From NCBI GenBank assembly GCA_964361785.1, contig CAYIBX010000005.1:1-55395 (forward strand): DNA of 55,395 nucleotides. Direction: 5' to 3'. The notes under the pieces are model-generated. The model was given only the letters and a program-made list of their open reading frames with translations, searched no databases and had not been told where the DNA came from. This DNA is from an uncultured Gammaproteobacteria bacterium. Lineage in GTDB: Bacteria > Patescibacteriota > Microgenomatia > UBA10105 > UBA927. Within the stretch, counting starts at the first letter, position 1. Every line of letters begins with the position of its first letter. This document shows positions 907 to 45,774 of the stretch, piece by piece. Made by a program: the position numbers and the translations under genes.

Positions 907-3462
907 ATGAGGCGGTTTTTCAATGCATGGGTTACATGGGGAGTATTGATCGGATTGGTAGTATTTGTTTACGCTCTCCAACCTTCTCCTATCCAAGCGG
1001 CAGTGTGTAATTCCTGCATTAGAAATAATTGTTGCGGGGACGTTTGTGGGGCTGGTTACTCATGTGGTGGTGGGAGTGGAATAATGAATGAATGTTATTG
1101 TGTGGCAAACGCACCTACTTCTCCTCCTGAACCTACTGATCCACCGCCAGAAACATGCCCTAGTTATACAAATTTATGTACTGGTACAAAAGATTGTAGT
1201 CAATTTGGTTCAGGAAGCTTTGCAGTGTGTAAGACCTATGGTTATCCTCAGTGTAAATATGATTGGGTTTGTACTCAATCAGATCCAAATAATAACTGTA
1301 CAAGTTGGTCTGCATGGTCACCTTCCATATGCTATGCGCCAGATTTGCAAACGAGGTATTGTACAGCCCCAGCAGGTGTAAATATAGGTCAGGCTCAGAC
1401 GTGTCCGCCTAATCCCGGCGGCGGGAATAATCCACCCACAGGGTCGCTTAGTTGTCCGTCTCAAATTACGTTAGGGCAAAGCGGTAGTTTTACGATAAAC
1501 GGCAGTGATGTAGATGGTAATCTCGCTTCTGCTGGTTTATATTATTCTTCCACAAGCTCTCAGCATTGGTATCGCAATGATGGTAGTGACTGTAATATAT
1601 CTCCGTACTGCCCTGCTAATATCAGTTGCACCGGTGCTAGTTGTACATCTTCCCATAATTGGACGCCACTTGCAGTCGGAACGTATTATATGGCGGTAAA
1701 TTATTATGATAGCGCGGGCGGAAAATGCAGTGGGAATCCTTTTGGTATACCCGCCGGTTGGGGCGATTGTGGACCAAATGATTATTGTACGGTGACGGTA
1801 AATCCTGTTCCTACCCCTACTCCTACTACCGCGCCAAAGAGCTACACGATAAATAGCCAAATAGTGTGTACGACAGGTGTGCTAGATTCGAGCGTTGCTA
1901 CACGGCAATGGGGCGTGGTATATTTTCCCAGTGTATCTTCCGTCGGTACATTGTCTACAGGCGTGCATACCAAGACATTTACCAGTAACATCACCGGTCA
2001 GCGCGTGGATGTGGGGATGGATGATGGTACGGATACGGGCAATCTAAATTTATATGGTTCGCCGCCCAATGCAGCTATTACGTACGGTACGTATTTTGGC
2101 GCGCCGGGAGCCAACTGGAGCCGAGACGTATTGCCAGCCGGCACGTATACCATAAATTTTCAAGCACCGGCATCTGCGTGTTTTCAACCGATAACTGGCG
2201 CTTGTTCTAGTCCAGCTGCCCATTACACCTGTAGTTCTCTAGCGGCAAGTACCAACAATGTCAATGGGGCGACTTCTTACACCTGGTACTGTCCGGGTTC
2301 GTACGGCGGAGCAACGAGTCCACAATGTATAGAATACAAACCAGTTACTATACAAGTACGTGGCGTGAGCTTGTCATCCACTCCGCAAACATGTAGTGAA
2401 ATAACCAGTGGCACATCATATCGTTCTGGTTCTGTATTTGATGTTACCAAAAACGGTACGTCTATCGGACAACAAACCCAGTCTGGATCTTCGTATCTGA
2501 CATGGACAAATACTGCTGCCACGTATGTCGCTTCGTCTGTAGAAGCGCCTACGTCGATAGTACAGTATTGCCGTACGCAAAATGGAACGAGCGTCTTTGG
2601 ATCTTCAAGTGTGACTGCTGCCTCTGGATCTACCACGACGTTTGATGTCTCGTTTAGTCCGTATGGACCATGGTTTCAAGCAAAAGGCGGTGGAGATGTG
2701 TATGCTGGGGGTAGGCTTGTCTCCAGCATCCCAGCATCTGCCACTACGCGGCGGTTTATCCTCGATGACGGCCCCGTAGGCGCTCTTTTTCCGAGCATGG
2801 CAATATATGGGTCAACCGGCGTAATCCCGTATGATTTTGATCAGGCATCCACAAATCAGGGAGAGACCATCGTTTCCAGTAAAAATTGGCTTGTACAGCA
2901 TCAAAATAGTACGTTAGATTTGTATAGCATGTTTTATGCCAAATTTGGTTCTCCAACGACTGCTGACTACACCAACCCACCCTCCCCTATTACAAAACCA
3001 GCCAGTCGTGCGACACCGTATTATGTTTCTGGAGATGTCACGACGACTGGTGATTGGAGTGTGGGAAATGGTGAGCAATTGATCCTTCTTGTGGATGGCA
3101 GTATAACTATTGGGGGTGAAATGCACACGTCAGGCACAGGGGTCATCGTCGTAATCGCAAAAAATGATATCTCGTTTGCGCCGGCAGTTGGTGTGGCTGT
3201 GGCAAGCTCTACTCCATCAGTAGAAGGCGTGTATATAGCGGGAGTTACGTTACATACAGGGACAAGTGTTGCAGGGTCAGAACGGTTTGTAGGCAGCGGC
3301 ATGTTTTTTGGCAATACCATATCATTAGAACGAAATTTATTAGCAGCTGGGGGAAACCAGCTTATGCCGGCGGAAACTTTTATGTATGATCCATCGTTTT
3401 TAGTGAATTTGCCTGAAGATATGAAAGATACGCCAGTAAGTTGGCAAGAGGTGGCACCATGA
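907..3462 (+). CDS. Large secreted Cys-rich surface protein, pilus-associated adhesin candidate
   Basis: N-terminal hydrophobic signal, many Cys-rich modules, Pro/Thr linkers, beta-rich C-terminus ending WQEVAP; ATGA overlap with the pilX-like gene. Confidence 0.65.
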   Translation: MRRFFNAWVTWGVLIGLVVFVYALQPSPIQAAVCNSCIRNNCCGDVCGAGYSCGGGSGIMNECYCVANAPTSPPEPTDPPPETCPSYTNLCTGTKDCSQFGSGSFAVCKTYGYPQCKYDWVCTQSDPNNNCTSWSAWSPSICYAPDLQTRYCTAPAGVNIGQAQTCPPNPGGGNNPPTGSLSCPSQITLGQSGSFTINGSDVDGNLASAGLYYSSTSSQHWYRNDGSDCNISPYCPANISCTGASCTSSHNWTPLAVGTYYMAVNYYDSAGGKCSGNPFGIPAGWGDCGPNDYCTVTVNPVPTPTPTTAPKSYTINSQIVCTTGVLDSSVATRQWGVVYFPSVSSVGTLSTGVHTKTFTSNITGQRVDVGMDDGTDTGNLNLYGSPPNAAITYGTYFGAPGANWSRDVLPAGTYTINFQAPASACFQPITGACSSPAAHYTCSSLAASTNNVNGATSYTWYCPGSYGGATSPQCIEYKPVTIQVRGVSLSSTPQTCSEITSGTSYRSGSVFDVTKNGTSIGQQTQSGSSYLTWTNTAATYVASSVEAPTSIVQYCRTQNGTSVFGSSSVTAASGSTTTFDVSFSPYGPWFQAKGGGDVYAGGRLVSSIPASATTRRFILDDGPVGALFPSMAIYGSTGVIPYDFDQASTNQGETIVSSKNWLVQHQNSTLDLYSMFYAKFGSPTTADYTNPPSPITKPASRATPYYVSGDVTTTGDWSVGNGEQLILLVDGSITIGGEMHTSGTGVIVVIAKNDISFAPAVGVAVASSTPSVEGVYIAGVTLHTGTSVAGSERFVGSGMFFGNTISLERNLLAAGGNQLMPAETFMYDPSFLVNLPEDMKDTPVSWQEVAP

Positions 3463-4274
3463 AAAAACAAAATGGTCAGATCGTGTTGATGACGCTTCTG
3501 GTGCTTACAGTGGCGATTACATTGGTACTAGCTTTTATCGGGCGTACAACCGTCAATACTGCGATTAGCTCGCAACTAGAGGATTCTGCCCGCGCGTTTA
3601 ATGCTGCTGAGGCAGGCATTGAGTCATCGCTGAAAAGTGGTATTGGATCGTCTCTGGTGTTATCAAGCGGCGCAAAGGTTGACACCGTTGTTACTACTAT
3701 CGGTGGAGCCGCAAATGTTTATACCTTCCCCAAACAAACGTCGACTACAACTACCGAGACGCTTTGGTTGGTAGATCATAATGCGGATGGGAGTCTAAAT
3801 GAGGCCAGTTCGTTTAACACTAATCTTGTCACACTTTGCTGGACACAAGAAGCGACCGTCCCTGCTCTTTCGGTAGCAGTCATCTATAAAAGAAGTGGTA
3901 CGTATTATGTGGCGCGCGGCGGCTATGATCAGAGTGCGGCTAGTCGAGCAAATAATTTTTCGTCCCCTACTTTAGCAGGTTCTGGCTGTGGAACATCGAA
4001 TGTGTACGCAAAGTCGATAAATTTTAGTACGGATTTTGGGATAAACGTCGCGACAGATACATTGCTGATGCTTCGTGTGAGGCCCTATTATAGCGGTACG
4101 ACTATTTCTTTTGATCCGGGAGCCGGGAGTTTGCCTTTACAAGCCAAACGCATAGAGTCGTCAGGATCTGTATCCTCAGGGACGACGAGAAAAATAGAAG
4201 TGTATCAACAATATAAATCTCCATCTTCATTATTTGATGCGGTGCTTTATAGTCAGTCGGATATTATTCAGTAA
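3459..4274 (+). CDS. PilX-like minor pilin / pilus assembly protein
   Basis: Prepilin-like MKKQNG|QIVLMTLLVL start and AFNAAEAGIE PilX-N motif; ATG at 3459 overlaps the upstream TGA. Confidence 0.75.
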   Translation: MKKQNGQIVLMTLLVLTVAITLVLAFIGRTTVNTAISSQLEDSARAFNAAEAGIESSLKSGIGSSLVLSSGAKVDTVVTTIGGAANVYTFPKQTSTTTTETLWLVDHNADGSLNEASSFNTNLVTLCWTQEATVPALSVAVIYKRSGTYYVARGGYDQSAASRANNFSSPTLAGSGCGTSNVYAKSINFSTDFGINVATDTLLMLRVRPYYSGTTISFDPGAGSLPLQAKRIESSGSVSSGTTRKIEVYQQYKSPSSLFDAVLYSQSDIIQ

Positions 4275-6677: not shown

Positions 6678-7357
6678 AGGAGGTCTGGTCGTTTTCTTTT
6701 CGTTTTATGAAGAGCTTGCCATTGTTGCCATGCTGCAATTTTTTTGTGATCGCCTGATCGTAACACCTCTGGCACTGATTTGTCGTTGTACATTTCTGGC
6801 TTTGTGTATTGCGGATATTCAAGAAGATTGTTTGTGAACGATTCATGTGTTGTGGCTTCCGGTTTTGAGAGTACGCCGGAAACTAGCCGTGTGACGCTAT
6901 CAACGATAACCATTGCAGGAATTTCGCCTCCTGTCAGTACATAGTCACCAATTGAAATTTCTTCGTCGACTAATGATCGCACGCGTTCATCTACCCCTTT
7001 ATAATGTGCACAAAGTAAGATTATGTGATCATAATTTTTCGCGAGATTATGTGCGATTGATTGTTTGTATGGTGTGCCCTGAGGGTCAAGTAATATCGTT
7101 TTTGTTTGGGTCTTGGGTTTTGTGATTTGAGATTTGACGTGCTTTAAAGCACGGTCTACGATATCTACTCGAAGTATCATGCCGATTCCCCCGCCGTACG
7201 GTCTGTCATCGACTGATTTATAAGCGTCAGTAGCAAAATCTCTCAGGTTGATGAGGTCAATTTCTATGAGTTGTTTAGAAACAGCACGCTTAATGATTGA
7301 ATACTCAAACGGACCAGTAAACATGTCCGGAAAGAGAGTGATGATGGAGAATTTCAT
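6674..7357 (-). CDS. trmD: tRNA (guanine37-N1)-methyltransferase
   Basis: VDDRPYGGG, SIGDYVLTGGE and LEYPQYTKP motifs. Confidence 0.97.
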   Translation of the reverse strand: MKFSIITLFPDMFTGPFEYSIIKRAVSKQLIEIDLINLRDFATDAYKSVDDRPYGGGIGMILRVDIVDRALKHVKSQITKPKTQTKTILLDPQGTPYKQSIAHNLAKNYDHIILLCAHYKGVDERVRSLVDEEISIGDYVLTGGEIPAMVIVDSVTRLVSGVLSKPEATTHESFTNNLLEYPQYTKPEMYNDKSVPEVLRSGDHKKIAAWQQWQALHKTKRKRPDLL

Positions 7358-9098: not shown

Positions 9099-11150
9099 TT
9101 AATCTTTAATAGATTCAATTTTACTCTCTTTGCGTATTTCACTCAAGAGGGGAATAGTAGCATGATCAACTTGCGATGCAAAAAGTATGTCTACCTCCGT
9201 TTTCGCAGCGTGTACAAGTGAGGCATTCGTATACGAGGCAATTTTTAGGTCCGGCAACCCGTGTTGACGTGTCCCGAAGAGTTGGCCGGGCCCACGAAGA
9301 GTCAAATCGAGCTCTGCAAGCTCTGGTCCGCTGTGGGTAGTTTCCAGTGCTTTTAATCGTTTGATGGAGAGTTCTTGTATACTCTCTGTAAATAGTAAAC
9401 AATATGAAGACAAATCGTTTCTTCCTACGCGACCTCGTAGTTGATGAAGTTGCGATAATCCAAATCGATCTGCAGCCTCAATAACCATGATGGTGGCATT
9501 GGGGATATCGATACCCACTTCTACCACTGGGGTGGAGACGAGAATATCGATTTTTTTGGCACGAAAGTCAGCTAAAAGCGTATCTTTTTCTTTCGGTTTC
9601 ATCCGGCCGTGCAAAAGTCCCACGCGAAAATCTTTAAATTCATGAGCTTTCAAGTGTTCATATTCAGATGTAGCAGCTTTGACCGTGACTAAGGTATCGG
9701 ATTCTTCTATAAGCGGACACACGATAAACGCTTGTGTTTTATGTGTCGCAAGCTCTTTTCGTATCCATTCGTATCCCGCCATTCGCTTCTCTTCTGGCAC
9801 CACCCACGTGGTCACAGGTTTTCTTCCTGATGGCATGTGTGTGAGCGTTGAGAGATCCATTTCGCCATACACCACGCGCGCGAGGGTGCGCGGTATTGGT
9901 GTGGCTGTCATGGTGAGCAAATGCGGTGTGGATTTGGCTTTGCTAGTACCTAATAAAATATTGCGTTGTGACACGCCAAAGCGTTGTTGTTCATCAATCA
10001 CGACGAGTCCTACGTTGTTGATACTTTCATTCGTAGAAAGGAGTGCGTGTGTGCCAATCGTAATATGGGCAATGTTTATCCCTTCGTAATTTTTTTGTTC
10101 TTTTTTTTGTCCTGTAATTAATCGGATGTGAATAAGGAGTTTTTCAAAAAGCTTTGTGATCGTTTGATAATGTTGGCTAGCGAGTATTTGCGTGGGTGCC
10201 ATCAGGATTGAGGGAAATCCACTCGTGTGAGCTATATACATAGCTATTGCTGCGACCACCGTTTTCCCTGATCCCACGTCTCCCTCAAGAAGTCTATTCA
10301 TGGGAATATTTTTGCCTATATCCTGTCGTATTTCTTTGATCGACTGTAATTGATCGTCAGTTAAGCCAAATGGTAATCGTGTGATAATCGTTTCAAGTGG
10401 TGCATCATGTATTGTTAATATTGGTGCGTGGGTAAGAAGCTCACGTTGCTTCTTTCTGTATGCTGATTTGGCGATAAGAAGAAACATTTCATCAAATGCG
10501 AGTCTTGCTTTGGCTGTTTGCGCCTCGTCAAGTGTTGTTGGAAAATGGACATTTTGTAATGCTCTCGTAAGTGGTATGAGTTTTTGACGAGTAAGAATAT
10601 CTTGTGAGAGTGATTCTTCTAACTTTGGGAGACACGTTTGCAATATAAAATTTACGCGACCCCGCAGCCATTTGGATGTGACGCCTGCGGTCTCTGGATA
10701 TATCGGTACAAGGCGACCAGTGTGTAGATGTGCATCTATTCCGTCCATCGGTTCATAGACTGGGGATTCTAATACGAGTTTGGACGCAAACCAATTGGCT
10801 TTGCCAGAAACACTCACGGTAGTTTGTGGTTTGAGTATTTTGGTGAGAAACATTTGGTTGTACCATACGCATTCTATGTGTCCCGTCTCATCTGATAACA
10901 CTGCTCTCTGCATGCGTTTGCCTGATTTGGTGAAAATGTTAACGATCGATTCGATCGTCCCGACGACGGTCACCGAATCCTGCGGACGTATGCCACTAAT
11001 GTTGGTTGTGTGGCGATAATCGTCGTAGCGAAATGGAATATGGTAGAGAAGATCACGTACCGTGTATATGCCAAGTTTTTCTAACTTCTCTGCCATCGCA
11101 GGACCGACGCGCGGGATATATTGTGCAGGAGATGAAAGTTCTAGTTGCAT
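9099..11150 (-). CDS. recG: ATP-dependent DNA helicase RecG
   Basis: GDVGSGKT, DEQQRFG, MTATPIPRT, QLRGRVGR motifs; wedge OB domain. Confidence 0.96.
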   Translation of the reverse strand: MQLELSSPAQYIPRVGPAMAEKLEKLGIYTVRDLLYHIPFRYDDYRHTTNISGIRPQDSVTVVGTIESIVNIFTKSGKRMQRAVLSDETGHIECVWYNQMFLTKILKPQTTVSVSGKANWFASKLVLESPVYEPMDGIDAHLHTGRLVPIYPETAGVTSKWLRGRVNFILQTCLPKLEESLSQDILTRQKLIPLTRALQNVHFPTTLDEAQTAKARLAFDEMFLLIAKSAYRKKQRELLTHAPILTIHDAPLETIITRLPFGLTDDQLQSIKEIRQDIGKNIPMNRLLEGDVGSGKTVVAAIAMYIAHTSGFPSILMAPTQILASQHYQTITKLFEKLLIHIRLITGQKKEQKNYEGINIAHITIGTHALLSTNESINNVGLVVIDEQQRFGVSQRNILLGTSKAKSTPHLLTMTATPIPRTLARVVYGEMDLSTLTHMPSGRKPVTTWVVPEEKRMAGYEWIRKELATHKTQAFIVCPLIEESDTLVTVKAATSEYEHLKAHEFKDFRVGLLHGRMKPKEKDTLLADFRAKKIDILVSTPVVEVGIDIPNATIMVIEAADRFGLSQLHQLRGRVGRNDLSSYCLLFTESIQELSIKRLKALETTHSGPELAELDLTLRGPGQLFGTRQHGLPDLKIASYTNASLVHAAKTEVDILFASQVDHATIPLLSEIRKESKIESIKD

Positions 11151-11160: not shown

Positions 11161-11307
11161 CTATCTTGGTGTAAGTGCTTCGGTAAGTGCGTGGCTCATG
11201 AGATTTTCTAATTGAGCATAGTCGCCAGCGTCAGCGGCTTGCATCGCAGTAAGATCAGTTTCTTTGTATGAGGTTGCGCCCTTGGGTTTTGTGCTAGATC
11301 GTTTCAT
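11161..11307 (-). pseudogene. 48-aa ORF, probable internally deleted Fic-family toxin remnant
   Basis: Hand translation MKRSSTKPKGATSYKETDLTAMQAADAGDYAQLENLMSHALTEALTPR; ATGA-coupled to the upstream antitoxin-like ORF; no HPFxxGNGR motif. Confidence 0.45.
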
Positions 11308-11489
11308 CGTTTAACTAAAAGAGAGCGAATGGACTTGCAGGTAACCGATTCTCCCTCAAGTTTTGTAGTTCGGAATATGAGTTCCGGCATAAATGCACGA
11401 AATAGGGATAAAAGAGATTGTTTACTCTGCTTTGCTTTTCGAAAGCTCTTATATCGTCTCTGTAACGTAGTTCGTTGCTTGACTGTCAT
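11304..11489 (-). CDS. Small protein, candidate VbhA-like Fic antitoxin
   Basis: 61 aa containing TTKLEG, which fits the (S/T)xxxE(G/N) Fic-inhibitory motif; TATACT -10 just upstream. Confidence 0.5.
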   Translation of the reverse strand: MTVKQRTTLQRRYKSFRKAKQSKQSLLSLFRAFMPELIFRTTKLEGESVTCKSIRSLLVKR

Positions 11490-11636: not shown

Positions 11637-12845
11637 TTACTTTTTAATAACTTTAAGAATCGTATGGGGTCCAATATTTATTATATCATTATTATTTAGG
11701 AGAGTGCCATCATTTTCTCTTAGCAATGTTGAGTTGTTTATGTCTATGCTTCCTGATGTAATCAAACGTTTCACTTCAGACTTGCTTTTGTTGTATGGAG
11801 CAGCCCCGAGTGCTTCATATATGGTTGCATTGCTTATTAATACAACAGGTTTTGCAATAGCTGCTTTTGCTGATACGGTTTGTTGCGTGGTGTGTGAGAA
11901 GGCTTGTTCAAACGAACATTGTGCTCTTTCAGCATCCATTTCTGAATTAAATGATTTCGTAAGCTCAAAGGCTAAGCGTTTTTTCCATACCATAGGGTTA
12001 TCCCCTGCTTTTATTTTCTTTTTCATCGTATCTATGGCGTCCATGGGTGTATCAGTAAGTAACGTAAAACATGGGATGATTGCGTCGTCTCCCAAAGACA
12101 TAATTTTGCCATAAAAATCCGTTGGCTCGTCTGCAAGTCCTATGACGTTTCCCTCCGTTTTGCCAATTTTTGTACCCTTGCTATCAGTCAGAAGTGGCAC
12201 AGTCATTACAAATTTTTCTCTGTGTTGAATTTGAGAAACCAATTTTCTTCCCGCGATCATGTTAAACATTTGATCAGTCCCACCGAGTTCTAGATCGATG
12301 TTCATAGCCACTGAGTCGTACCCCACCATAAGGGGGTATAAAAATTCGTGAAGTCCGATTTGATCAGAGCGTTTGATTCTGGCTTGGAACATATCGCGTT
12401 CGATCATTTGTTGTACGGTGAAGTGTGACGCCAAGCGTATGACATCTGCAAATGATAGTTTTGATAACCATTCGTTATTAAACAATACTTCGACAGGATT
12501 ATCTCCATCAAATTTAAGTATTTTTGACGCTTGCCTTTGATATTCTTTTGCGTTTTCTAACACTTGCTCATGGGTAAGGATTGGTCGAGCATCTGCTTTC
12601 CCAGATGGATCGCCAATAGTTGCAGTAAAATCTCCAATAAGAAATATGACTTTGTGTCCTAATTCTTGGAATTTGCGTAATTTACGCATGGCGACGGAGT
12701 GTCCTATATGAAGTCGCGCGCCAGTAGGATCAAATCCTTGGTAGAGGCGAAGTTTTTGGTCGCTTCTTAAAACTTTTTCCAGCGCTTCTTTGCTTGGCAA
12801 TATTGTGTCTACGCCTCGAGATAATAAATGATCTATAGCATCCAT
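11637..12845 (-). CDS. tyrS: Tyrosine--tRNA ligase
   Basis: GFDPTGARLHIGH, GDFTATIGDPSGK, GGTDQMFN, KIGKT motifs; C-terminal S4-like domain. Confidence 0.96.
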   Translation of the reverse strand: MDAIDHLLSRGVDTILPSKEALEKVLRSDQKLRLYQGFDPTGARLHIGHSVAMRKLRKFQELGHKVIFLIGDFTATIGDPSGKADARPILTHEQVLENAKEYQRQASKILKFDGDNPVEVLFNNEWLSKLSFADVIRLASHFTVQQMIERDMFQARIKRSDQIGLHEFLYPLMVGYDSVAMNIDLELGGTDQMFNMIAGRKLVSQIQHREKFVMTVPLLTDSKGTKIGKTEGNVIGLADEPTDFYGKIMSLGDDAIIPCFTLLTDTPMDAIDTMKKKIKAGDNPMVWKKRLAFELTKSFNSEMDAERAQCSFEQAFSHTTQQTVSAKAAIAKPVVLISNATIYEALGAAPYNKSKSEVKRLITSGSIDINNSTLLRENDGTLLNNNDIINIGPHTILKVIKK

Positions 12846-12874: not shown

Positions 12875-13756
12875 TTAGCTATGAGTAGAAAGATCAATAA
12901 TAAATTGTATTTTCTCCGCGAGTGTTTCTTTTGGAATACGAATAAAGAGTGATTCAAACAGTCGCACGATGCTTCCCATATGATTGAGTGCCGCGCGAGC
13001 CATCTCATCATCTTTTCGTGTAGAGAAGAGATCGAGTTTTTCTTTCACATTTTCATTAGGTGATAAAAGTATTCGGGACTCCCCTTCTATAGAAATGTAG
13101 GGTGATGCTTTTGGACGATTACTATCAAAAGTTTTACCAGCTTTACAATGCAAAAATGATAACGGCAATGCATGAGCGTCACGAATTTGTGAGTCAAAAA
13201 ATCGTTCATCATGACCCTGCGGAATTGGATCATTATTGATGGACCAGCCAAGTTTGAGTCTGACATTTTTGACGTTCGTAAACCATGTCATATCTGCGAT
13301 TTCTTTTTGTAGGTATTGATTTGGCATATTTGGCATAGTTTCTAAGATGGTTTGAAATTGAGGGTCCGTATGAATATCAGAGCTTAAGATAACGGTAAAA
13401 TTTTTAAGACGCAGATTTCTTATAACTTTTATACAGGTAGATTTCATTTCGTTTGTGCGTTTTTGTATTATTTCATCGGTCATGAATGTATTTGTTCTCG
13501 CATGCTCATCTGCGATAAGTACAAAGATAGTATCGAGTGAGAGTTCTCGTTGCAATTTTTCGGCTAAAAAGAAAAAGGAAAGAATGTCAAAAGGGATGGC
13601 GGTAGCTGGCTCTTTACTGGTGCAGAGTCCGATGCCAAAAAATAATGATGGATTCACAGTGGACAAAAGCAAGTCCCAATCTATGAAATCCGACGAAAGA
13701 CCCTCTATAAAAAGTGGCTCTTCCTTTAGGATCGATAAAAGTTTTTCTTTTTTCAT
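12875..13756 (-). CDS. Uncharacterised class Ic aaRS-like (TyrRS/TrpRS-fold) protein with no HIGH motif
   Basis: FVLIADEHA, YLQKEIAD (YxxxQ/ExxD spacing), GHDE and KASPY occur in the same order as the TyrRS core motifs. Confidence 0.55.
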   Translation of the reverse strand: MKKEKLLSILKEEPLFIEGLSSDFIDWDLLLSTVNPSLFFGIGLCTSKEPATAIPFDILSFFFLAEKLQRELSLDTIFVLIADEHARTNTFMTDEIIQKRTNEMKSTCIKVIRNLRLKNFTVILSSDIHTDPQFQTILETMPNMPNQYLQKEIADMTWFTNVKNVRLKLGWSINNDPIPQGHDERFFDSQIRDAHALPLSFLHCKAGKTFDSNRPKASPYISIEGESRILLSPNENVKEKLDLFSTRKDDEMARAALNHMGSIVRLFESLFIRIPKETLAEKIQFIIDLSTHS

Positions 13757-13759
13757 AGG

Positions 13760-13844
13760 TGCTGAGACTAGGATTCGAACCTAGGAAGCTCTTTCGAGCG
13801 ACAGATTTACAGTCTGTAGCGATTGACCACTCCGCCATCTCAGC
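13760..13844 (-). tRNA. tRNA-Tyr(GTA)
   Basis: Cloverleaf with GCTGAGA/TCTCAGC acceptor stem, anticodon loop CTGTAAA, long variable arm, GTTCGAATC; CCA not encoded. Confidence 0.96.
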
Positions 13845-13852
13845 TTTTTAAC

Positions 13853-13910
13853 AAAAAAAACACCCGTGTACGTCCCCTTCAATAAAGAAAGAGATATACA
13901 AGGGTGTTTT
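13853..13910 (-). terminator. Intrinsic terminator of the Tyr T-box
   Basis: AAAACACCCTTGTATATCTCTTTC...GAAGGGGACGTACACGGGTGTTTTTTTT. Confidence 0.85.
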
Positions 13911-14185
13911 AGACAAACACGGTACCACCTTGTTTTACTAGGAGTTATGGATTTTTAGCCATAAAAAATCCCGCCGAGACGGGATAACCTAGTCTCATTT
14001 GTATGCTCCGCTTATGGCGACACATACATTCTGCTATTACGGGCGTATCCGGATTGACTTACTTTTATTTTCAGTCTTTCAGCTCGTGGAGGGTATTTCA
14101 AAAAATAAAATTCGGCAAGTCTTGCATCACCCGCTTGCTTTCTTTTTGTCACTTTTATCTTTTTACTTCAGTCTCCGTCAGTGCT
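13853..14185 (-). promoter_or_regulatory. Tyr T-box riboswitch
   Basis: Stem I with TGACGGAG...CTCCACGAG, AGTA and GAAA-TAC specifier (14093-14095); stem II; CAAGGTGGTACCGTG T-box (13918-13932); U-tailed terminator. Confidence 0.92.
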
Positions 14186-14207
14186 TTTCGTATTAACTTG
14201 TCGTTAG

Positions 14208-14257: not shown

Positions 14258-16810
14258 ATGTATCAATTGTATTTAGAACGTCAACAAAGAAAGTTATTTG
14301 GGTCGCGATCGGCAAGAATTAAAACGATGAGTATTGTCGCATTTGGGAGTTTTTTTCTTCTTATTTTTGGACTCCTGTGTGTCGCTATATTATTTGCGTG
14401 GTATGCTAAAGATCTACCTCGTCCGGATAAAGTACAGCGGAAAGATGGCTTATCTACCATTATTCTCGATCGGAATGGAGAGAAATTGTATGACATATTT
14501 GCCGATGCTAATAGGATTCCTGCTAAATGGGAAGAAGTGCCACAGTGCTTAAAGGATGCCACAGTGGCTGTAGAAGATAAAGATTTTTATAAACATCAGG
14601 GATTATCGACCACTGGAATTTTGCGCGCTCTTATCCGCACAGTCCTTTTTCATGATACACAAGGTGGATCGACACTGACACAGCAATTGGTGAAAAATGT
14701 TTTACTCTCTACCGAGCAAACATTGCCTCGTAAAATGAAGGAAGCAATTCTTTCTATCCAAATAGAACGAAAGTACTCAAAAAACGATATTCTTCTCATG
14801 TATTTAAATGAAGTGCCATATGGCGGTACGGCTATAGGAGTAAAAGCTGCAGCGGAACACTACTTTAGTAAAGACGTCAAAAATTTGTCTATGCCAGAAT
14901 GCGTGATGCTTGCGGGTCTGCCACAGTCCCCTACGACCTATTCGCCATTTACCGGTGAGCCCAAAGCGTATATCAGTCGCACTACCCAAGTATTGCGACG
15001 TATGAGAGAGGACGGATATCTTACCGTAGTTTCAGAAGGAGAAATACGAAAGGCTCTGGATACAGTTGTATTTTCTGCAGGTGATGGTAATTTACGCGCT
15101 CCGCACTTTGTCGCATATGTCAAAGATTTGTTGGTACAAAAATTTGGTGAAAAAATGGTAGAAACAGGCGGGCTCAAGGTGACGACCACGCTCGATTGGA
15201 AACTGCAGGAAACCAGCCAGATAGCTGTGAAAGAGGAGGTAGATAAAGCAAAAAAGTTAAAAGTAGGAAACGGTGCAGCTGTTGTTTTGGATCCAAATAC
15301 AGGTGAAATTCTTACCATGGTAGGAAGCAAAGATTATGGCGCGACGGAAAGTTCTGGATTTAAGTTTAACGTCGTAACGCAAAGCTTACGGCAACCCGGT
15401 TCTGCGATAAAGCCATTTGTCTATGCTGCAGCGTTTACTAAGGGGTATACACCTTCATCGCTTCTTCTAGATGTAGATACCAAGTATCCTTCAGGAGATG
15501 TAAACAAGCCCGAATATAATCCAAAAAATTATGATAGTAAGTATAGAGGTCCTGTGCAACTTCGGTACGCACTCGGCAATTCCATAAACACTATAGCAGT
15601 AAAGACGACAGCACTGGCAGGGGTAAAGGAAGTATTACGACTGAGCTTTGCATTAGGACTTACGACGCTAGAGCCTACCAATGATAATCTCAAACGATTA
15701 GGTCTGTCACTGGCTCTCGGTGGTGGCGAGGTACACATGCTTGATCTGGCTAGTGCTTATGGCGTCTTTGCGACAGGCGGCAAACGCGCGGACCCTGTGG
15801 CAATACTTAGGGTAGAAAATAGTACAGGAAAGGTTATCTTTGAACAAAAATTTGCAACGCTACGTGAAGAACTTGATCCACCTGTCGCATTTCTTATCTC
15901 ATCAATTCTTTCGGACAATGAAGCGCGCAAAGATACGTTTGGATTGAAGTCTTATCTTTTTATCTCAGGGAAAACGGTAGCCGCCAAGACCGGAACAACG
16001 GATGACAAGCGGGACAACTGGACCGCAGGATACACGCCCAAACGCGTGGTCGTGACGTGGGTTGGAAATAATGATAATACGCCCATGCATCCGTCACTTG
16101 CATCTGGTATCACGGGGGCAGCTCCTATCTGGAATCGCATTGTGCGCGAAGCATTGAAGGATTTGCCTGACGAGAATTTTTTGCGCCCAGATGAAATAAT
16201 TGAAATGGACATAGACGGTTTTGGTGGTGGTACGCCTGTAGATGGACAGCCAACGCGAAAAGAGTTTTTTGTGAAAGGCACAGAACCGACTGGCCCTTCA
16301 GCAATTTATCAAAAGTTAAAAATTTCTCGTAAAGACAATTCTAAATTAGCAAATAGTGTAGAGGTCGCCACAGGCGATTATGAAGAAAAACTCTATATTG
16401 TCTTTGCTGAAGACGATCCGGTCTCCGGAGATGGCAAAAATAGATGGCAAGAAGGGATCAATGGATGGATAGTGGGACAAGATAGTAAATATAGGCCGCC
16501 CACAGAGACCCAATCAGGGACAGATCAGGTAGTCGTGAGCATTAAAAAGCCACAGGATGGGGAGAGAATAGATGATAATACCGTTACTATTGAGATAGAA
16601 ACATTTACCACAGAAGATATCGAACGGGTAGAAATCTTTGTGGATGGAGACAAAAAGAAAGAGCGACAGGAGAAATCATTTAGTGAAACTATCACAGTAT
16701 CAAATGGATCACATACGATAACGGTAAAGGCGACGAATAAAAAAGGAAGAACGGATGAGCGAACGATTCATGTGGGGATCAAAGAACCCTACGCGACCCC
16801 TACCCCTTGA
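14258..16810 (+). CDS. Class A bifunctional penicillin-binding protein (PBP1A family)
   Basis: EDKDFYKHQG and GGSTLTQQLVKN (GT51); SAIK, SIN, KTGT transpeptidase motifs; C-terminal Ig-like domain. Confidence 0.95.
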   Translation: MYQLYLERQQRKLFGSRSARIKTMSIVAFGSFFLLIFGLLCVAILFAWYAKDLPRPDKVQRKDGLSTIILDRNGEKLYDIFADANRIPAKWEEVPQCLKDATVAVEDKDFYKHQGLSTTGILRALIRTVLFHDTQGGSTLTQQLVKNVLLSTEQTLPRKMKEAILSIQIERKYSKNDILLMYLNEVPYGGTAIGVKAAAEHYFSKDVKNLSMPECVMLAGLPQSPTTYSPFTGEPKAYISRTTQVLRRMREDGYLTVVSEGEIRKALDTVVFSAGDGNLRAPHFVAYVKDLLVQKFGEKMVETGGLKVTTTLDWKLQETSQIAVKEEVDKAKKLKVGNGAAVVLDPNTGEILTMVGSKDYGATESSGFKFNVVTQSLRQPGSAIKPFVYAAAFTKGYTPSSLLLDVDTKYPSGDVNKPEYNPKNYDSKYRGPVQLRYALGNSINTIAVKTTALAGVKEVLRLSFALGLTTLEPTNDNLKRLGLSLALGGGEVHMLDLASAYGVFATGGKRADPVAILRVENSTGKVIFEQKFATLREELDPPVAFLISSILSDNEARKDTFGLKSYLFISGKTVAAKTGTTDDKRDNWTAGYTPKRVVVTWVGNNDNTPMHPSLASGITGAAPIWNRIVREALKDLPDENFLRPDEIIEMDIDGFGGGTPVDGQPTRKEFFVKGTEPTGPSAIYQKLKISRKDNSKLANSVEVATGDYEEKLYIVFAEDDPVSGDGKNRWQEGINGWIVGQDSKYRPPTETQSGTDQVVVSIKKPQDGERIDDNTVTIEIETFTTEDIERVEIFVDGDKKKERQEKSFSETITVSNGSHTITVKATNKKGRTDERTIHVGIKEPYATPTP

Positions 16811-40108: not shown

Positions 40109-40126
40109 TTATATAAGATCCTTAAG

Positions 40127-40198
40127 TGGTCGGTGCAGGATTTGAACCTGCGACATCTGCAATGTGAATGCAGCGCTCTACCGCTGAGCTAACCGACC
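40127..40198 (-). tRNA. tRNA-Val(CAC)
   Basis: GGTCGGT/ACCGACC acceptor; CTGCA-TTCACAT-TGCAG anticodon arm. Confidence 0.95.
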
Positions 40199-40206
40199 AT
40201 ATCTTT

Positions 40207-40294
40207 ATGTGAATACAATGCTCTTCACCCGCGCCCGAACAAATTTGTTTTCAAATTTGCGCGGGTTCGGGTAAACCACTTCAGCTAGACGTCC
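40207..40294 (-). repeat. Degenerate tRNA-Val 5' half with a 50-nt palindromic insert in the D-loop
   Basis: GGACGTCTAGCTGAAGTGGT[TTACCCG...CGGGTGA]AGAGCATTGTATTCACAT. Confidence 0.75.
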
Positions 40295-40551
40295 TTCAAA
40301 TAATTTTTTAGTACTCTCTGTAAATAATTTCGTCCCCACTGCGTTTTAAAGAATTGTTCTCTACTCGTAGCATCTTGTTGATGCAAATACGCTTCGTAAT
40401 AGATTAGAATAAATGGCTTTCTATGTTTAGTACTTTCCACTTTGCCAGAGTTGTGATCTTGAAACCGACGCTTAAGGTTATCTGTATACCCTGAATAGTG
40501 TTTGTTATCGATTAAACTTCGTAAAATATATGTATAGTACACAGAATGCAA
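40285..40551 (-). CDS. Small GIY-YIG endonuclease
   Basis: YYTYIL...HYSGYT.NL.RR...HN.G...ST, ILIYYE, A..RE...K; start TTG 40551 or GTG 40542. Confidence 0.9.
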   Translation of the reverse strand: MHSVYYTYILRSLIDNKHYSGYTDNLKRRFQDHNSGKVESTKHRKPFILIYYEAYLHQQDATSREQFFKTQWGRNYLQRVLKNYLKDV

Positions 40552-40619
40552 CGCTCTTCACCCGTTCAAATTTTTGCATAGCAAAAACTTGTTCGGGTAA
40601 ACCACTGAGCTACAAGTCC
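40544..40619 (-). repeat. Degenerate tRNA-Val 5' half with a 43-nt palindromic insert in the D-loop
   Basis: GGACTTGTAGCTCAGTGGT[TTACCCG...CGGGTGA]AGAGCGTTGCATTC. Confidence 0.75.
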
Positions 40620-40651
40620 TCTAGAGCGTATTATATAAGGAAGATTTATAC

Positions 40652-41251
40652 TTATCCAGCTGCTGTAGCGAGAGAACGTTCATTGGAGAGTCCGAATGTG
40701 GTGCCGTGTTTTTTAAACATGCCCCAGTAGCCTAATTTCTTTTTGCGCCCCACACTCATATTGAGCCACACGCGACTGTCTTCAATTTGCTGGCGAAGAA
40801 CATGGATAAATGTACGCAGTTGATCGTAGTAGTTTATGTGATATATGCCCGGTGCCACAGGCGTTTGTTCTATAGCAGATTGCACGTCTTGACTTAGGTT
40901 TTTCAGAGACTGGGAAAGCGCCTTTAATTCTTGGCGTACTGCCTCAAGCTGTTGTCTAGTTTGTTCGGTGATAGCGTCGATAGATGTATTAGATACTTCC
41001 ATTTTTGGTGCTTCCATTTGCGGTTTGGCTACTTCCTGTACTTGAACGCCTAGTTCTATCGTTTGATTGGGCTGAAGCTCTCCTGATACTGGTAGAGCGC
41101 CACCAACTAGAGAAGAAAATATAGTTTCGCCGATAGTTGTAGCCATAGTTGCCGTATTGATTGCCACGTCAGAACTTACGCCGCGAAGCTGCTCGAGCAC
41201 ATTATCGTTTTTGAAATTGACAGGCTTATTTTTTGGAGTCGTTTTGGTCAT
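40652..41251 (-). CDS. DUF5660-like protein
   Basis: GIYHINYY...IEDSRVWL...YWGMFKKHGTTFGLSNER C-terminus (family recalled, not searched). Confidence 0.65.
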   Translation of the reverse strand: MTKTTPKNKPVNFKNDNVLEQLRGVSSDVAINTATMATTIGETIFSSLVGGALPVSGELQPNQTIELGVQVQEVAKPQMEAPKMEVSNTSIDAITEQTRQQLEAVRQELKALSQSLKNLSQDVQSAIEQTPVAPGIYHINYYDQLRTFIHVLRQQIEDSRVWLNMSVGRKKKLGYWGMFKKHGTTFGLSNERSLATAAG

Positions 41252-41312
41252 GTGGCGCAATTATACTACATGAGCGCAAATAAAACAAAAAAATTTAACG
41301 CGAATAAATTTC

Positions 41313-42161
41313 CTAGAGGGTCGAGAGGAAATCAAGTGTTTTTTGGCGTCGCAGCATATTCACGAGGTAATATTTTTGCTCCTCAAATTGTTTCTTTTCG
41401 GCATCTGTTTTGGCTGTAGCTAACATTTTTGCAAGATCTGCATCTTCTACCGTGATTTTTTCTTTATCAGCCACAACTTCAAGAGTAAATTCGAGAGTGA
41501 GTGCTCGCGTCGCATTTGCTGCATATTCTTGGCGTACTGACTCGGCGGTACGGTTGGTAGAAGCCAAGTACTGCTCGACCGTAAGGCCAAGTTTTTTGGT
41601 TTGATCGACGAGTTGCGAGAGCTGATGGGTAACTTCGTGCTCGATAAGAATAGAGGGAATAGTAGCTTTCGTGACCTGTATAAGCTTGGTGATGATCTCA
41701 TCAAGTGTCGCTTTTTTATCTTCGGGTTTCAACTCTTCTTTTCCAGGGAGTATAAGTGTATTTTCTTTTTCACGCTTTAGTTCTTGGATGACTTTTTTGT
41801 ACTCCCCCACTTCTACTATTGGTTTTTCACAAGTTTTAGCTAAGACAATCCAATCTGATTGTTCTTTCGCTTCCTTAAGCTCGATTTGGGGCATGAGGAT
41901 TGGTTTTATGTTGTGTTTTTCTACCGCATCTGCATATACTTTAGGAATCAAGCGTTTGATTGCTTCCTCGTAAACCGTATTTTTATTCAGGCTGTCTTCT
42001 ACCATTTTTCTTGGAGCCTTGCCTTTTCTAAATCCAGCAAGTTCTGCATCTTTCACAAAATCATCCACCACCATTTCATACGTGGATTGTATCGTGTTCC
42101 ACGGGATTATAAACGTAAGCTCAATTGTGCCATCAGAGGTAATTGTTTTGGTAGAATTCAT
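41313..42161 (-). CDS. tig: Trigger factor, apparently lacking the PPIase domain
   Basis: GFRKGKAP ribosome-binding loop; only about 282 aa. Confidence 0.85.
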   Translation of the reverse strand: MNSTKTITSDGTIELTFIIPWNTIQSTYEMVVDDFVKDAELAGFRKGKAPRKMVEDSLNKNTVYEEAIKRLIPKVYADAVEKHNIKPILMPQIELKEAKEQSDWIVLAKTCEKPIVEVGEYKKVIQELKREKENTLILPGKEELKPEDKKATLDEIITKLIQVTKATIPSILIEHEVTHQLSQLVDQTKKLGLTVEQYLASTNRTAESVRQEYAANATRALTLEFTLEVVADKEKITVEDADLAKMLATAKTDAEKKQFEEQKYYLVNMLRRQKTLDFLSTL

Positions 42162-42205
42162 TCCCAAAGTGTATCACATGAAGCTATGTGTAGCCAAGTC
42201 CTGTA

Positions 42206-42619
42206 TTAATCGTTTATTCCAAGATCCAAATCAAGGGTTGGTGGCGTAAAAAGACCTTCCTGAAACGTAAAGTTGCTGATCTCTGCAGAAAATGATGCAT
42301 TTTTAATGCTAAACGCTATAAATGCATCAGTAGTAGACAGAGCTGATGGCTTACGAATTGGTGTCGGGGTGGGAGCAGCGGTAGGAGTGACGATGACTTG
42401 TTCTGTCGGCGCATTTTCCTTTCTGTTTTGAAGAAATACTGCGATCAGCGTAATGATGAGAATAAGAATAATACTTACGAGTATCACAAGTATCGGCAAA
42501 GGCTTTTTTGTGATTGTATTGGTAGGTGGAGACACTGGTGGCAGCGTGATATTAGGAGTTTCTGGTCCTTTAGTCGGTGGCGTTGGTATCGTTTGTGTAT
42601 CTTCCATATTAGTCATCAT
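42206..42619 (-). CDS. Hypothetical single-TM Pro/Thr-rich protein
   Basis: ORF composition. Confidence 0.6.
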   Translation of the reverse strand: MMTNMEDTQTIPTPPTKGPETPNITLPPVSPPTNTITKKPLPILVILVSIILILIITLIAVFLQNRKENAPTEQVIVTPTAAPTPTPIRKPSALSTTDAFIAFSIKNASFSAEISNFTFQEGLFTPPTLDLDLGIND

Positions 42620-43415
42620 ACGTTAACGCTTTTTCAATTTCTGTAATAAATGATGAGCCCTCTCCCAAATACTGCCGAGCAGAAGAAAGATCTTGTAAAA
42701 GTACGACAAATTTACGATCCTGGTCAGCGACGTCTCCGGTAAGTTTAAATGTACCGGTTCTGACGCCATCGACTTTTTGTTGATATAAGCTGCGCTTATT
42801 AGAAAGAGCTAAGATGAAGCGATCGAGTGTCGCTCGTTTGGTGTCTGTCATAGAAGAGCGATTTGCATTGACTATTGCTTGCGCTTGACTGGCAAGTGTA
42901 TCAAACTGCTTGGCAAAATAGCGTAAGTAGCCGAGTTGGACTGCTATGATAGTTTGTCGGTAAGAAGACTGCAGTATGGGATAGTGTTTGATAAATTCAC
43001 TAGACATTTTTTCTACATCAGCCAAAGAGGAGAGTGATGGCGCCATAGATGTTTCTTGATCAAGGAATGCGATTTCATTGGTAATAATTTTTTGATAAAG
43101 ATCAAGTTCAGCAGGAGGCATGGATGGACTTTCCGTAAGCATTTCGTTTAAAAACAAAAAGTACGTGCGTGCAACTTGATTTCGTTGGCCCACAGCAGTT
43201 TTTACCTTTTCTAGGGCGTCTTGCTCACTGGAGAGTGAGCCATATTTTTTAAATTCTCCGAGTGCGACGCGGTAGTCACCAAATATCTGACGATAGATAT
43301 CGAATTGAAATTGGAAGTCTTGATATGCCTGTACAGACGTTGCCTTTACGCTAGAGGTAAAAGACAACCCCAGAATAAAGAGTGCCGCATATATAAAAAT
43401 TCGTTTGAAAACCAT
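42609..43415 (-). CDS. Hypothetical secreted helical protein
   Basis: Signal peptide from MVFKRIF; the longer upstream ORF extension overlaps a tRNA. Confidence 0.65.
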   Translation of the reverse strand: MVFKRIFIYAALFILGLSFTSSVKATSVQAYQDFQFQFDIYRQIFGDYRVALGEFKKYGSLSSEQDALEKVKTAVGQRNQVARTYFLFLNEMLTESPSMPPAELDLYQKIITNEIAFLDQETSMAPSLSSLADVEKMSSEFIKHYPILQSSYRQTIIAVQLGYLRYFAKQFDTLASQAQAIVNANRSSMTDTKRATLDRFILALSNKRSLYQQKVDGVRTGTFKLTGDVADQDRKFVVLLQDLSSARQYLGEGSSFITEIEKALTYDD

Positions 43416-43466
43416 ACTTTTATAGTACGAAGTGTGGGGGAAAAGAGCAAGCGAGCATCTTATTTG

Positions 43467-43548
43467 TGCCGGGAAGAGGAATCGAACCTCCAAGAGTTGC
43501 CTCACAGGTTCCTAAAACCTGCGCGTCTACCAATTTCGCCATCCCGGC
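43467..43548 (-). tRNA. tRNA-Leu(TAG)
   Basis: CAGGT-TTTAGGA-ACCTG anticodon arm; long variable arm. Confidence 0.95.
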
Positions 43549-43575
43549 ATAATACCCGCTTGTATTATATCGTGG

Positions 43576-44124
43576 TTAGATAGTAACTGCTAGATCGCCG
43601 ACTGCTTTTGGCGCAAAGCCATCGATGGCATTTAAAAAGAAATGTACGTTTGTGGCCCATCGAGGGGAAGCTGCATAAATACGGCCTATTTGTTCGATAG
43701 TAGTAGCACCTTTGTCCATATACTTATAACGCAGGCCTTCAGATACGGTGGTAATGCCATCTTTCCATGAGACAAAATGTTTGCCGTCATTATGTCCCGT
43801 GAATATAGCCCACCCCCACGCGTTGTAGGAATTTGAGGGTATACGTTTGCCAAACGTCGATTCAGTGCCAGCTATGGCAGCTACAAGCTTCCAATCAAGA
43901 TTTAGCCGATCTGCTTCCTTGATGAGAAAGCCAGCTTCACTTGCCAGAGGAGAATTGTGTGAACGAAGATAGGCTTCTAGTTGGACTGCTCGCTGGTCGA
44001 TTGTAATCATAGCAAAGCTCGCAATAGCAGATGTCCCAGCGACTTGTGAAAAATGCGCATGAATAGCTTTGGCAGATGCCAAAAGCATGAGAGTAAGTGC
44101 AATAATGGTTAGGGCGTTTTTCAT
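43576..44124 (-). CDS. Secreted lysozyme-like / glucosaminidase-family protein
   Basis: LVAAIAGTESTFG, YNAWGW, IGRIYA. Confidence 0.7.
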   Translation of the reverse strand: MKNALTIIALTLMLLASAKAIHAHFSQVAGTSAIASFAMITIDQRAVQLEAYLRSHNSPLASEAGFLIKEADRLNLDWKLVAAIAGTESTFGKRIPSNSYNAWGWAIFTGHNDGKHFVSWKDGITTVSEGLRYKYMDKGATTIEQIGRIYAASPRWATNVHFFLNAIDGFAPKAVGDLAVTI

Positions 44125-44892: not shown

Positions 44893-44948
44893 GTATCCAT
44901 AGTGGCATAGGGATGGTTTTGTGTCAATGTAAAAAGTGAAGCAGCTTG

Positions 44949-45770: not shown

Positions 45771-45774
45771 TTTG

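Follow-up and report, generated by a model that had tools for sequence, protein, structure and literature searches.

Organization of the tyrosine locus

The window analysed here is a stretch of 55,395 nucleotides from an uncultured bacterium of groundwater (contig CAYIBX010000005.1 of assembly GCA_964361785.1), and our subject is an open reading frame (ORF) at 12875..13756 on its minus strand, the window ORF, which lies next to the gene of tyrosyl-tRNA synthetase (TyrRS). A first-pass annotation, made from the DNA letters alone, had described the product as an orphan with a TyrRS-type fold. Its coordinates were confirmed, and so were the motifs quoted for it in the order given, which are invariant columns of a 39-sequence alignment of the family, an agreement well beyond any accidental likeness. 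Our best reading is that the window ORF encodes a non-adenylating paralogue of archaeal/eukaryal-type TyrRS, which cannot itself be a synthetase. It belongs to a set of elements arranged on the minus strand in the order tyrosine T-box, terminator, tRNA-Tyr, window ORF and tyrS, as follows:

13897..14190, minus strand: T-box leader (RF00230, 86.6 bits, E 2e-19, model positions 1-219 of 219)
13854..13910, minus strand: terminator of the T-box, a long hairpin followed by eight U
13758..13844, minus strand: bacterial-type tRNA-Tyr (GTA) (ARAGORN; Rfam tRNA 60 bits)
12875..13756, minus strand: window ORF, a TyrRS-fold protein of 293 aa lacking the HIGH motif, ATG start
11637..12845, minus strand: tyrS, bacterial-type TyrRS (TIGR00234 4.3e-101, PF00579 1.7e-70; HIGH and KIGKT present)
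9099..11150, minus strand: recG, conserved right neighbour of tyrS
14258..16810, plus strand: divergent gene of a class A penicillin-binding protein (PBP), with which the insertion site is bordered on the left in a conserved manner

The T-box leader carries a UAC tyrosine specifier in GAAAUACC and the conserved T-box sequence AGGUGGUACCG, which agrees with the tyrosine-specific regulation that had been proposed. Since it is a tyrosine T-box, expression is expected when tRNA-Tyr is uncharged. The region of the terminator (13846-13935, minus strand) folds with -33.1 kcal/mol and a z score of -5.5, none of 200 shuffled sequences being as stable, and the 5' arm of the terminator hairpin overlaps the T-box sequence. 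The link of the ORF to a T-box and to tyrS is real; what had been overlooked is the tRNA-Tyr (GTA) gene abutting the start codon. This tRNA has a G1-C72 pair, A73 and a long variable arm, and it is one of two tRNA-Tyr genes of the source genome, the other copy being clearly different and located on contig C33. Only about 10 nt separate the U-run of the terminator from the tRNA gene, so that the riboswitch seems to govern transcription of the very tRNA that it senses; a positive feedback could possibly arise from this.

The ATG of the window ORF follows the discriminator base of the tRNA by 4 nt (A/CCT/ATG, 13756-13760, minus strand), and the same A/CCTATG junction was observed in five of eight Tyr loci (window, L003, L006, L007, L009). 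No Shine-Dalgarno sequence fits at the start of the ORF, so that the message left after excision of the tRNA is perhaps nearly leaderless, that is, a tRNA-punctuated mRNA. A promoter scan of the minus strand gave no promoter-like site in the stretch that leads from the T-box to the tRNA gene; because none was found upstream of the T-box either, the scan is uninformative for this organism. We believe that a T-box placed over a tRNA gene is unusual, and likewise a coding message that begins 4 nt past a tRNA, no literature search dedicated to either feature having been made. The tyrS gene starts 29 nt past the stop of the window ORF and is the sole TyrRS gene of the genome by tblastn. As for the two border genes, their orthologues at locus L044 carry Transgly and Transpeptidase domains (PBP) and RecG domains (RecG).

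Protein family, fold and active site

The source genome (1.11 Mb, 42 contigs, completeness 100) holds one copy of the window ORF. Among 5.8 billion clustered proteins we found 59 relatives of its product, all unnamed or 'hypothetical'; those of named origin came from Candidatus Gottesmanbacteria, plus one from Saccharibacteria. An exhaustive search of 1.84 billion representatives yielded 345 family clusters at E<=0.001, 255 at <=1e-10 and 56 at <=1e-30. Two alignments were built, one of 39 sequences (the A1 members) and a wider one of 102 diverse members having 23-66% identity to the window protein. In the former the invariant positions are G41, G43, P55, D57, L59, E66, D83, H85, A86, N89, Y148, E152, D155, K168, G170, W171, D183, E184, F187, D188, G207, P219, Y220 and R228. 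Ten columns stay invariant in the latter (G41, G43, P55, Y148, K168, W171, E184, P219, Y220 and R228), and D57, L59, A82, D83, H85, A86, D155, D183, D188 and G207 are kept there in at least 90% of the sequences. The near-invariant motifs of the family are ADxHA, Y148xxxE152xxD155 and DERFFD (D183-E184-R-F-F-D188). Judged from sequence conservation, the window ORF is a functional, conserved gene and not a decaying one. A single metatranscriptome contig of 175 nt (run X9) is identical to 13481-13655, a weak sign of expression for which DNA carry-over is possible; transcript ends are not readable from such contigs, and stretches that they leave uncovered are uninformative.

No model of Pfam or NCBIfam covers the family. 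The window protein gave sub-threshold matches at residues 76-143 with PF00579 (E 0.16) and with the archaeal-type TyrRS model NF006330 (E 0.09), failing both curated cut-offs (11.7 vs 21.1 bits and 11.8 vs 220 bits, respectively), and a TIGR00234 search of it returned no match. Eight of the 102 family members touched PF00579 at E<0.1. When the 102-sequence profile was run against the PDB, archaeal and human TyrRS were matched at E 0.08-1, always through the ADxHA segment, and TyrRS made up 7 of the 12 listed matches; PDB sequence searches with the single protein or the 39-sequence profile gave nothing relevant. A protein-language-model atlas likewise pointed to PF00579 clusters.

The AlphaFold2 (AF2) model of the window protein, built on the alignment, reached a predicted local distance difference test score (pLDDT) of 93.2 and a predicted template modelling score (pTM) of 0.93. 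With this model Foldseek placed the TyrRS of M. jannaschii and A. fulgidus first in the PDB (E about 4e-8). VIA-align laid model residues 1-293 on residues 1-318 of A. fulgidus TyrRS (2cyb_B; Z 21.0, root-mean-square deviation 3.3, 255 aligned), and its best 50 listed entries were all TyrRS, which bears out the class Ic, Rossmann-like fold named in the first-pass annotation. That annotation had also asked for a comparison with TyrRS, tryptophanyl-tRNA synthetase (TrpRS), cyclodipeptide synthases (CDPS) and PvcA, and a structure search independent of Foldseek, covering 48,161 representative chains, gave the following scores for the model:

Archaeal/eukaryal TyrRS: Z 18.5-20.1 (best Z 20.1, 255 aligned)
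Archaeal/eukaryal TrpRS: Z 16.1-17.2
Bacterial and mitochondrial TyrRS: Z 15.6-16.3
Bacterial TrpRS: Z 12.5-15.4
Cyclodipeptide synthases: Z 9.4-12.5 (151-173 aligned; best Z 12.5, 168 aligned; six of the seven listed confined to about residues 13-209)
PvcA: Z 8.9

Archaeal/eukaryal TyrRS are the closest, matching over the full length at Z 18.5-21, and a CDPS-like reading, which had been entertained, fits poorly. The model predicts for the window protein the full-length architecture of an archaeal/eukaryal-type TyrRS, with Rossmann fold, connective peptide 1 (CP1) and C-terminal helical domain. The earlier statement that no clear anticodon-binding domain is present was wrong: model residues 1-293 pair with 1-318 of archaeal TyrRS, so that the protein does have a C-terminal helical domain of the archaeal type, and only the bacterial S4-like C-terminal domain is absent. 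The window protein thus resembles archaeal/eukaryal TyrRS (2cyb, 2cya, 1j1u, 1n3l) in its whole-length fold, the ADxHA segment and a length of about 300 aa, but differs from them in having neither HIGH nor KMSKS and in an identity of just 12-17%.

The replacement of HIGH by IPFD, already noticed in the first-pass annotation, holds in the family as well. At this position, where the helix that follows strand 1 begins, the protein reads I-P55-F56-D57, of which P55 is invariant and D57 is kept in at least 90% of the 102 sequences. The KMSKS/KFGKT loop is likewise replaced by K-A-S-P219-Y220, whose P-Y pair is invariant in the 102-sequence alignment and whose Lys is not kept. As HIGH and KMSKS are missing and all curated thresholds are missed, tyrosine activation by the window protein is not expected. 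The motifs that serve the ATP phosphates have been lost, and those on the amino-acid and ribose side appear to have been kept and made more acidic. We take Y148xxxE152xxD155 and D183-E184 to correspond to the tyrosine-binding Tyr/Gln/Asp and the Glu-Gln of archaeal TyrRS, with a Glu in place of Gln.

The amino acid composition of the protein is peculiar too. Its 293 residues include 2 Tyr, exactly the two invariant ones, so that among 837 crude genes of the genome (mean 3.6%) it ranks within the lowest 1.7%. Only 2-4 Tyr are present in 34 of the 39 A1 family members. A second branch of the family, described below as paralog 2, has 0.7-1.2% Tyr, and the members of the tryptophan-linked ORF1 family have no Trp at all in 39 of 39 cases. 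Distant family members without a T-box are not depleted in Tyr. The TyrRS genes are alike in Tyr content whether linked to a module (1.3-2.6%) or unlinked (1.5-2.9%). The depletion seen in the family proteins reads as the compositional signature of a protein that is needed when the cognate amino acid is scarce.

Conservation of the module and its tryptophan-linked relatives

A sample of 401 genomes from across the phylum had the family in 2 cases; within the order it was present in 13 of 87 genomes, and of the 17 other members of the genus one has it. The 13 matches in the order comprise nine strong ones (E<=1e-60), an intermediate one (G409), two of the paralog 2 branch and one of a Trp-linked branch. 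The first-pass annotation had proposed to examine the neighbourhoods of homologs, and the tie to tyrosine held: tRNA-Tyr (GTA) lies directly upstream in 8/8 strong loci with a flank, the ninth ending at a contig edge, and a TyrRS-type gene lies directly downstream in 9/9. T-box leaders were found within the short flank in four of the eight strong loci (window, L003, L008, L009) and, with a longer flank, in a fifth (G446; L042). Homologous leaders in relatives scored 110.6 and 95.4 bits with RF00230, and in six of seven aligned leaders the specifier position is occupied by UAC, the alignment of the seventh (L009) leaving that region out. Tyrosine T-boxes also precede two other family branches (L011; L012/L013). 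A metagenome-assembled genome titled Candidatus Paceibacterota has the order PBP, T-box, tRNA-Tyr, ORF, TyrRS, RecG.

Loci of the same genus that lack the ORF have the same genes flanking tyrS, and 16/16 of them have neither the tRNA nor the T-box. From PBP start to tyrS start these loci measure 82-95 nt, against 1413 nt in the window. The joint absence in 16/16 loci argues that T-box, tRNA and ORF come and go as one unit of about 1.3 kb at a fixed site. An apparent decay of the module was noticed at L046 (3968-4986), where a 157-aa C-terminal remnant of the family is followed by an NYN-domain gene and tyrS, without the tRNA. At L011 (G409; 1447-3582, minus strand) a tyrosine T-box (110.6 bits, UAC) precedes a family member with an N-terminal extension of about 160 aa, and no tRNA or TyrRS gene was found in its 1.5-kb flanks.

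Four relatives (G436, G446, G473, G448; L004-L007, L042) have expanded Tyr modules, in which an extra TyrRS gene separates the ORF from the canonical tyrS. The extra TyrRS, of about 320 aa, has HIGH and KMSKS and lacks the tRNA-binding S4 domain. Two of these four modules also contain a further HIGH-less gene, paralog 2, which occurs alone behind tyrosine T-boxes in two further genomes and is homologous to the window family (HHalign 99.9%, E 5e-31). The fullest order is T-box, paralog 2, tRNA-Tyr, ORF, S4-less TyrRS and canonical TyrRS, so that up to four TyrRS-fold genes stand in a row. Furthermore, the family is fused to a complete TyrRS, in both orders, in three distant representative clusters (P0066, P0200, P0074). 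No longer, fused relatives of the window protein itself were seen among 3526 candidates, a weak negative given that the known fusions are distant members. Another distant member, P0087, joins an N-terminal PF13480 acetyltransferase (GNAT) domain to the family domain; its C-terminal approximately 100 residues look out-of-frame.

The source genome contains a comparable set for tryptophan. On contig C3 (L020 2477-7383, minus strand) a tRNA-Trp with A73 is followed by a 292-aa HIGH-less ORF and an archaeal-type TrpRS (TrpRS-A1). This is the tRNA-Trp-ORF1-TrpRS-A1 operon of Mukai et al. (2017; PMC5370408). In the accessible text of that paper ORF1 is described as always accompanying TrpRS-A and co-evolving with it; it is suspected to be a protein that resembles the aminoacyl-tRNA synthetases (aaRS) of class I and whose function is left open, is suggested to bind TrpRS-A or to form a pseudo-dimer with it, and is noted, as here, to be free of Trp. 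We found 233 relatives of ORF1, and the family in 10 of the 87 genomes of the order, directly after tRNA-Trp in 10/10. In one genome (G431) ORF1 and TrpRS share one open frame. The AF2 model of ORF1 (pLDDT 88.4) matched archaeal/eukaryal TyrRS best, at Z 20.5. Comparison of the window family (102 sequences) with ORF1 (39 sequences) by HHalign gave 96.5% and E 8e-10 over 213 columns, and the motifs IADxxxxxN, K-x-G, ERF[FY]D, P-Y and R-I-x-L are common to both. By these profiles and motifs, the window family and ORF1 belong to one superfamily.

The two proteins are alike in several respects. Each gene lies between a second tRNA gene and the gene of a cognate class Ic synthetase, the A/CCTATG junction recurs in the source genome at tRNA-Trp-ORF1 (contig C3 near 9808-9812; L020 about 7309-7313), each protein avoids its cognate amino acid, and archaeal/eukaryal TyrRS give the best structural match for the one as for the other (Z 20.1-21 for the window protein). 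They differ in that identity is 18% in the HHalign alignment, the window family being tied to tyrosine and ORF1 to tryptophan. Also, ORF1 accompanies an archaeal-type pair, TrpRS-A and tRNA-Trp (A73), whereas the window ORF accompanies a bacterial-type TyrRS and tRNA-Tyr. The window ORF is controlled by a T-box; none was found when the Trp locus of the source genome was searched, and the accessible text of PMC5370408 mentions none. A SWISS-MODEL prediction reported there suggested that ORF1 misses the Rossmann fold, but the AF2 models obtained here show a complete class Ic fold. It may be added that on contig C3 TrpRS-A1 is followed by a 160-aa ORF without Pfam match and then by a 780-aa bacterial-type TrpRS of unusual architecture, with two N-terminal YbaK-type editing domains (PF04073) and a C-terminal tRNA_bind domain (PF01588). 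The second tRNA-Trp of the genome, on contig C25, has G73.

Possible role of the window protein

Considering fold, regulation and composition together, we put at about even chances that the window protein derives from TyrRS and assists the supply or the quality of tyrosyl-tRNA, and that it is not a consumer of aminoacyl-tRNA. A Tyr-tRNA-dependent transferase, one of the roles offered in the first-pass annotation, is disfavoured like any other Tyr-tRNA consumer, because induction by uncharged tRNA-Tyr through the T-box and a protein purged of tyrosine oppose a draining of Tyr-tRNA. Among the specific readings we favour a partner of TyrRS, followed by a proofreading hydrolase, with a decoy or sensor and a transferase less likely.

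Our leading suggestion, which we advance tentatively, is that the protein is a pseudo-synthetase partner of TyrRS that would raise or secure the formation of Tyr-tRNA-Tyr at low tyrosine. Uncharged tRNA-Tyr would cause the module to be transcribed, excision of the tRNA would leave an almost leaderless mRNA, and a protein with only two tyrosines could still be made during the shortage. Its retained pocket may bind tyrosine or a tyrosyl-adenosine-like ligand, with no tyrosyl-adenylate being made, and in a complex with TyrRS, or beside TyrRS on the same tRNA-Tyr, it would contribute binding of tyrosine or of the tRNA when tyrosine is low. We draw here an analogy with the inactive half of the pseudo-dimeric TyrRS of trypanosomatids (Larson et al. 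2011, as cited in the accessible text of PMC9437257 and PMC5370408). In these double-length enzymes (3p0h, 3p0j, 5usf; Z 17.4-19.3 with the window model) an inactive and an active TyrRS unit are combined, and rare fusions of the window family with TyrRS do exist; however, the window-type unit is nearly always a separate gene with a strictly conserved pocket, and its complex with TyrRS is putative. TyrZ of Bacillus subtilis offers another comparison, being a second TyrRS-family gene under a tyrosine-responsive T-box. It has been proposed to guard against D-Tyr (Williams-Wagner et al. 2015, as cited in the accessible text of PMC9437257), but TyrZ is an active synthetase, which the window protein cannot be.

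Several observations weigh against such a partnership. TyrRS works without a family protein in 74 of the 87 genomes of the order, so the protein is dispensable, and around one distant homologue (G227), which is not poor in Tyr, neither a tRNA nor a T-box nor a TyrRS lies within 1.5 kb. The three putative TyrRS fusions are distant members known from protein sequences. The strictly kept acidic and polar residues of the pocket would suggest catalysis or a specific ligand, not a mere scaffold, and the mapping of the tyrosine pocket (Y148/E152/D155/E184) is a putative one that we assume from motif spacing. The C-terminal domain has no column at 90% conservation in the 102-sequence alignment, and anticodon recognition is for this reason not evident. 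HHalign of the family with bacterial-type TyrRS alignments was weak (13% and 25.5%), the second half of these alignments being unreliable. Finally, the window T-box scores below the Rfam gathering score (86.6 vs 93 bits).

A different accessory function would be trans-acting proofreading, in which the altered synthetic site hydrolyses mischarged aminoacyl-A76 of tRNA-Tyr, carrying D-Tyr or a near-cognate aromatic residue that gains the advantage under Tyr scarcity, and the ORF1 cousin does the same for tRNA-Trp. We regard this as possible, though rather unlikely. The disappearance of the ATP-phosphate motifs beside invariant, more acidic motifs on the amino-acid and ribose side suits such a hydrolase, and so does the occurrence of mostly free-standing and sometimes synthetase-fused forms, as is generally known for editing modules. 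D-Tyr-tRNA and D-Trp-tRNA are the classic substrates of D-aminoacyl-tRNA deacylase, and the two families serve just Tyr and Trp. The deacylase (PF02580) was found neither in the source genome nor in 83 of the 87 genomes of the order; its occurrence in 0/13 ORF-positive and 4/74 ORF-negative genomes involves, however, too few cases to be informative. The YbaK-type domains of the bacterial-type TrpRS place editing on a class Ic enzyme in this lineage, yet no known hydrolase uses the site in question, and a deacylase, which lowers charged tRNA, fits induction by a T-box less directly. The strict pairing and co-evolution of ORF1 with one TrpRS, as given in the accessible text of PMC5370408, would also suit a subunit better than an editor of general action. 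In its widest form the idea would make the whole superfamily (Tyr-linked, paralog 2 and ORF1) class Ic pseudo-synthetases with a catalytic activity, independent of ATP, towards the aminoacyl end of the tRNA proper to each. Each would then be a self-contained module, in which the tRNA gene and the pseudo-synthetase are expressed from a tRNA-punctuated leaderless mRNA, here under a T-box that also governs the tRNA gene. The activity could be, for example, a proofreading of chiral or near-cognate errors on behalf of TyrRS and TrpRS in lineages without the deacylase. This general scheme we hold to be doubtful. TyrRS and TrpRS are, to our knowledge, synthetases without a known editing domain.

The protein might instead be a ligand sink or sensor, which either soaks up a TyrRS-directed inhibitor mimicking tyrosyl-adenylate or adjusts the T-box circuit by binding tyrosine or uncharged tRNA-Tyr. 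It is general knowledge that T-boxes are switched on under TyrRS inhibition as well as tyrosine scarcity, and the patchy distribution (13 of 87 genomes in the order, 1 of 17 others in the genus) is that of an accessory. There are well-known cases of antibiotic resistance conferred by a second copy of an aaRS (PMC9437257, accessible text). We nevertheless find this role quite improbable, as no inhibitor is known, the lost phosphate-binding motifs would also weaken binding of an adenylate mimic, and nothing at the locus suggests a sensor output. An aminoacyl-tRNA-dependent transferase, either like CDPS or as an adaptor handing Tyr-tRNA-Tyr to a transferase outside translation, has in our estimate a slimmer chance still. 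CDPS (9j61, 2x9q, 4q24, 7qau) share with the window protein a class Ic-derived Rossmann fold without HIGH and KMSKS and a YxxxE motif, and they are detectable structural relatives; the PF13480 domain in P0087, which we take to be related to the aminoacyl-tRNA-using Fem transferases, also points this way. But CDPS lack the C-terminal domain and cover the Rossmann part only, the window protein having full TyrRS length and being much closer to TyrRS; no Pfam CDPS match was obtained at E<=1; and P0087 is a single cluster with a seemingly out-of-frame C-terminus. The catalytic serine of CDPS lies in a G-x-S motif after strand 1, and where it would be expected the window protein has G41-I-G43 with an invariant G43, a putative placement made from motif order. 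The neighbours are PBP, tyrS and recG, with no tailoring genes nearby, and the regulatory logic of the window ORF is opposite to that of CDPS. It is scarcely credible that the ORF is a duplicate in decay, without function, of an archaeal-type TyrRS gene gained by lateral transfer. The catalytic motifs of the ORF are lost and L046 holds only a 157-aa remnant, but we reject decay because the reading frame is intact in a family of 345 representative clusters, ten columns are invariant across 102 sequences of 23-66% identity, the replacement motifs are conserved in a confidently modelled structure, gene order is kept, and the composition, with only two invariant tyrosines remaining, is selected.

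TyrRS and TrpRS are, as far as we know, textbook enzymes for which no accessory or editing partner is recognised. A review of 2022 lists, in its accessible text, no paralogue function for either of them (PMC9437257). Our literature searches found no description of a Tyr-linked family, and to this extent the word 'undescribed' used in the first-pass annotation stands; it does not stand for the superfamily, the window protein being homologous to the known, uncharacterised ORF1 (PMC5370408). As ORF1 is the closest thing in print, the window family is best placed as a tyrosine-specific, T-box-controlled variant of ORF1-type proteins. The ORF1 of the Trp operons of the candidate phyla radiation (CPR) and DPANN, which has drawn little attention, thus has a tyrosine counterpart, both with a complete TyrRS-type fold, as modelled, and a remodelled catalytic site. 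In the tyrosine case the gene is coupled to a riboswitch that senses the charging of tRNA-Tyr, which points to tyrosine limitation as its physiological setting, and a family of several hundred clusters is thereby opened to simple assays. The pairs may, in addition, be of interest as natural material for the engineering of tRNA/synthetase systems.

A few minor observations concern the surroundings of the ORF. In the TyrRS of the window, the motif FLYPLMVGYD (12320-12345, minus strand) has Val at its variable position, and its orthologue at L008 likewise has Val. We take this variable position of YPLMxGYD to be the amino-group-binding Gln of TyrRS. It is Val in two of six module-linked canonical TyrRS and Met in 4/4 S4-less TyrRS (L004-L007), against Gln in all 13 pattern-matched unlinked TyrRS of the genus; two unlinked and one linked sequence did not match the pattern, the linked one reading Gln. 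Because the sequences are related, this is only a hint. The gap between tyrS and recG contains a basic ORF of 61 aa (11304-11489, minus strand), which has an 86% identical copy at the same-genus locus L031 and may be a real small gene. Of the 13 tRNA genes of the window, 12 are clustered in its last 14 kb, at 40126-53759.

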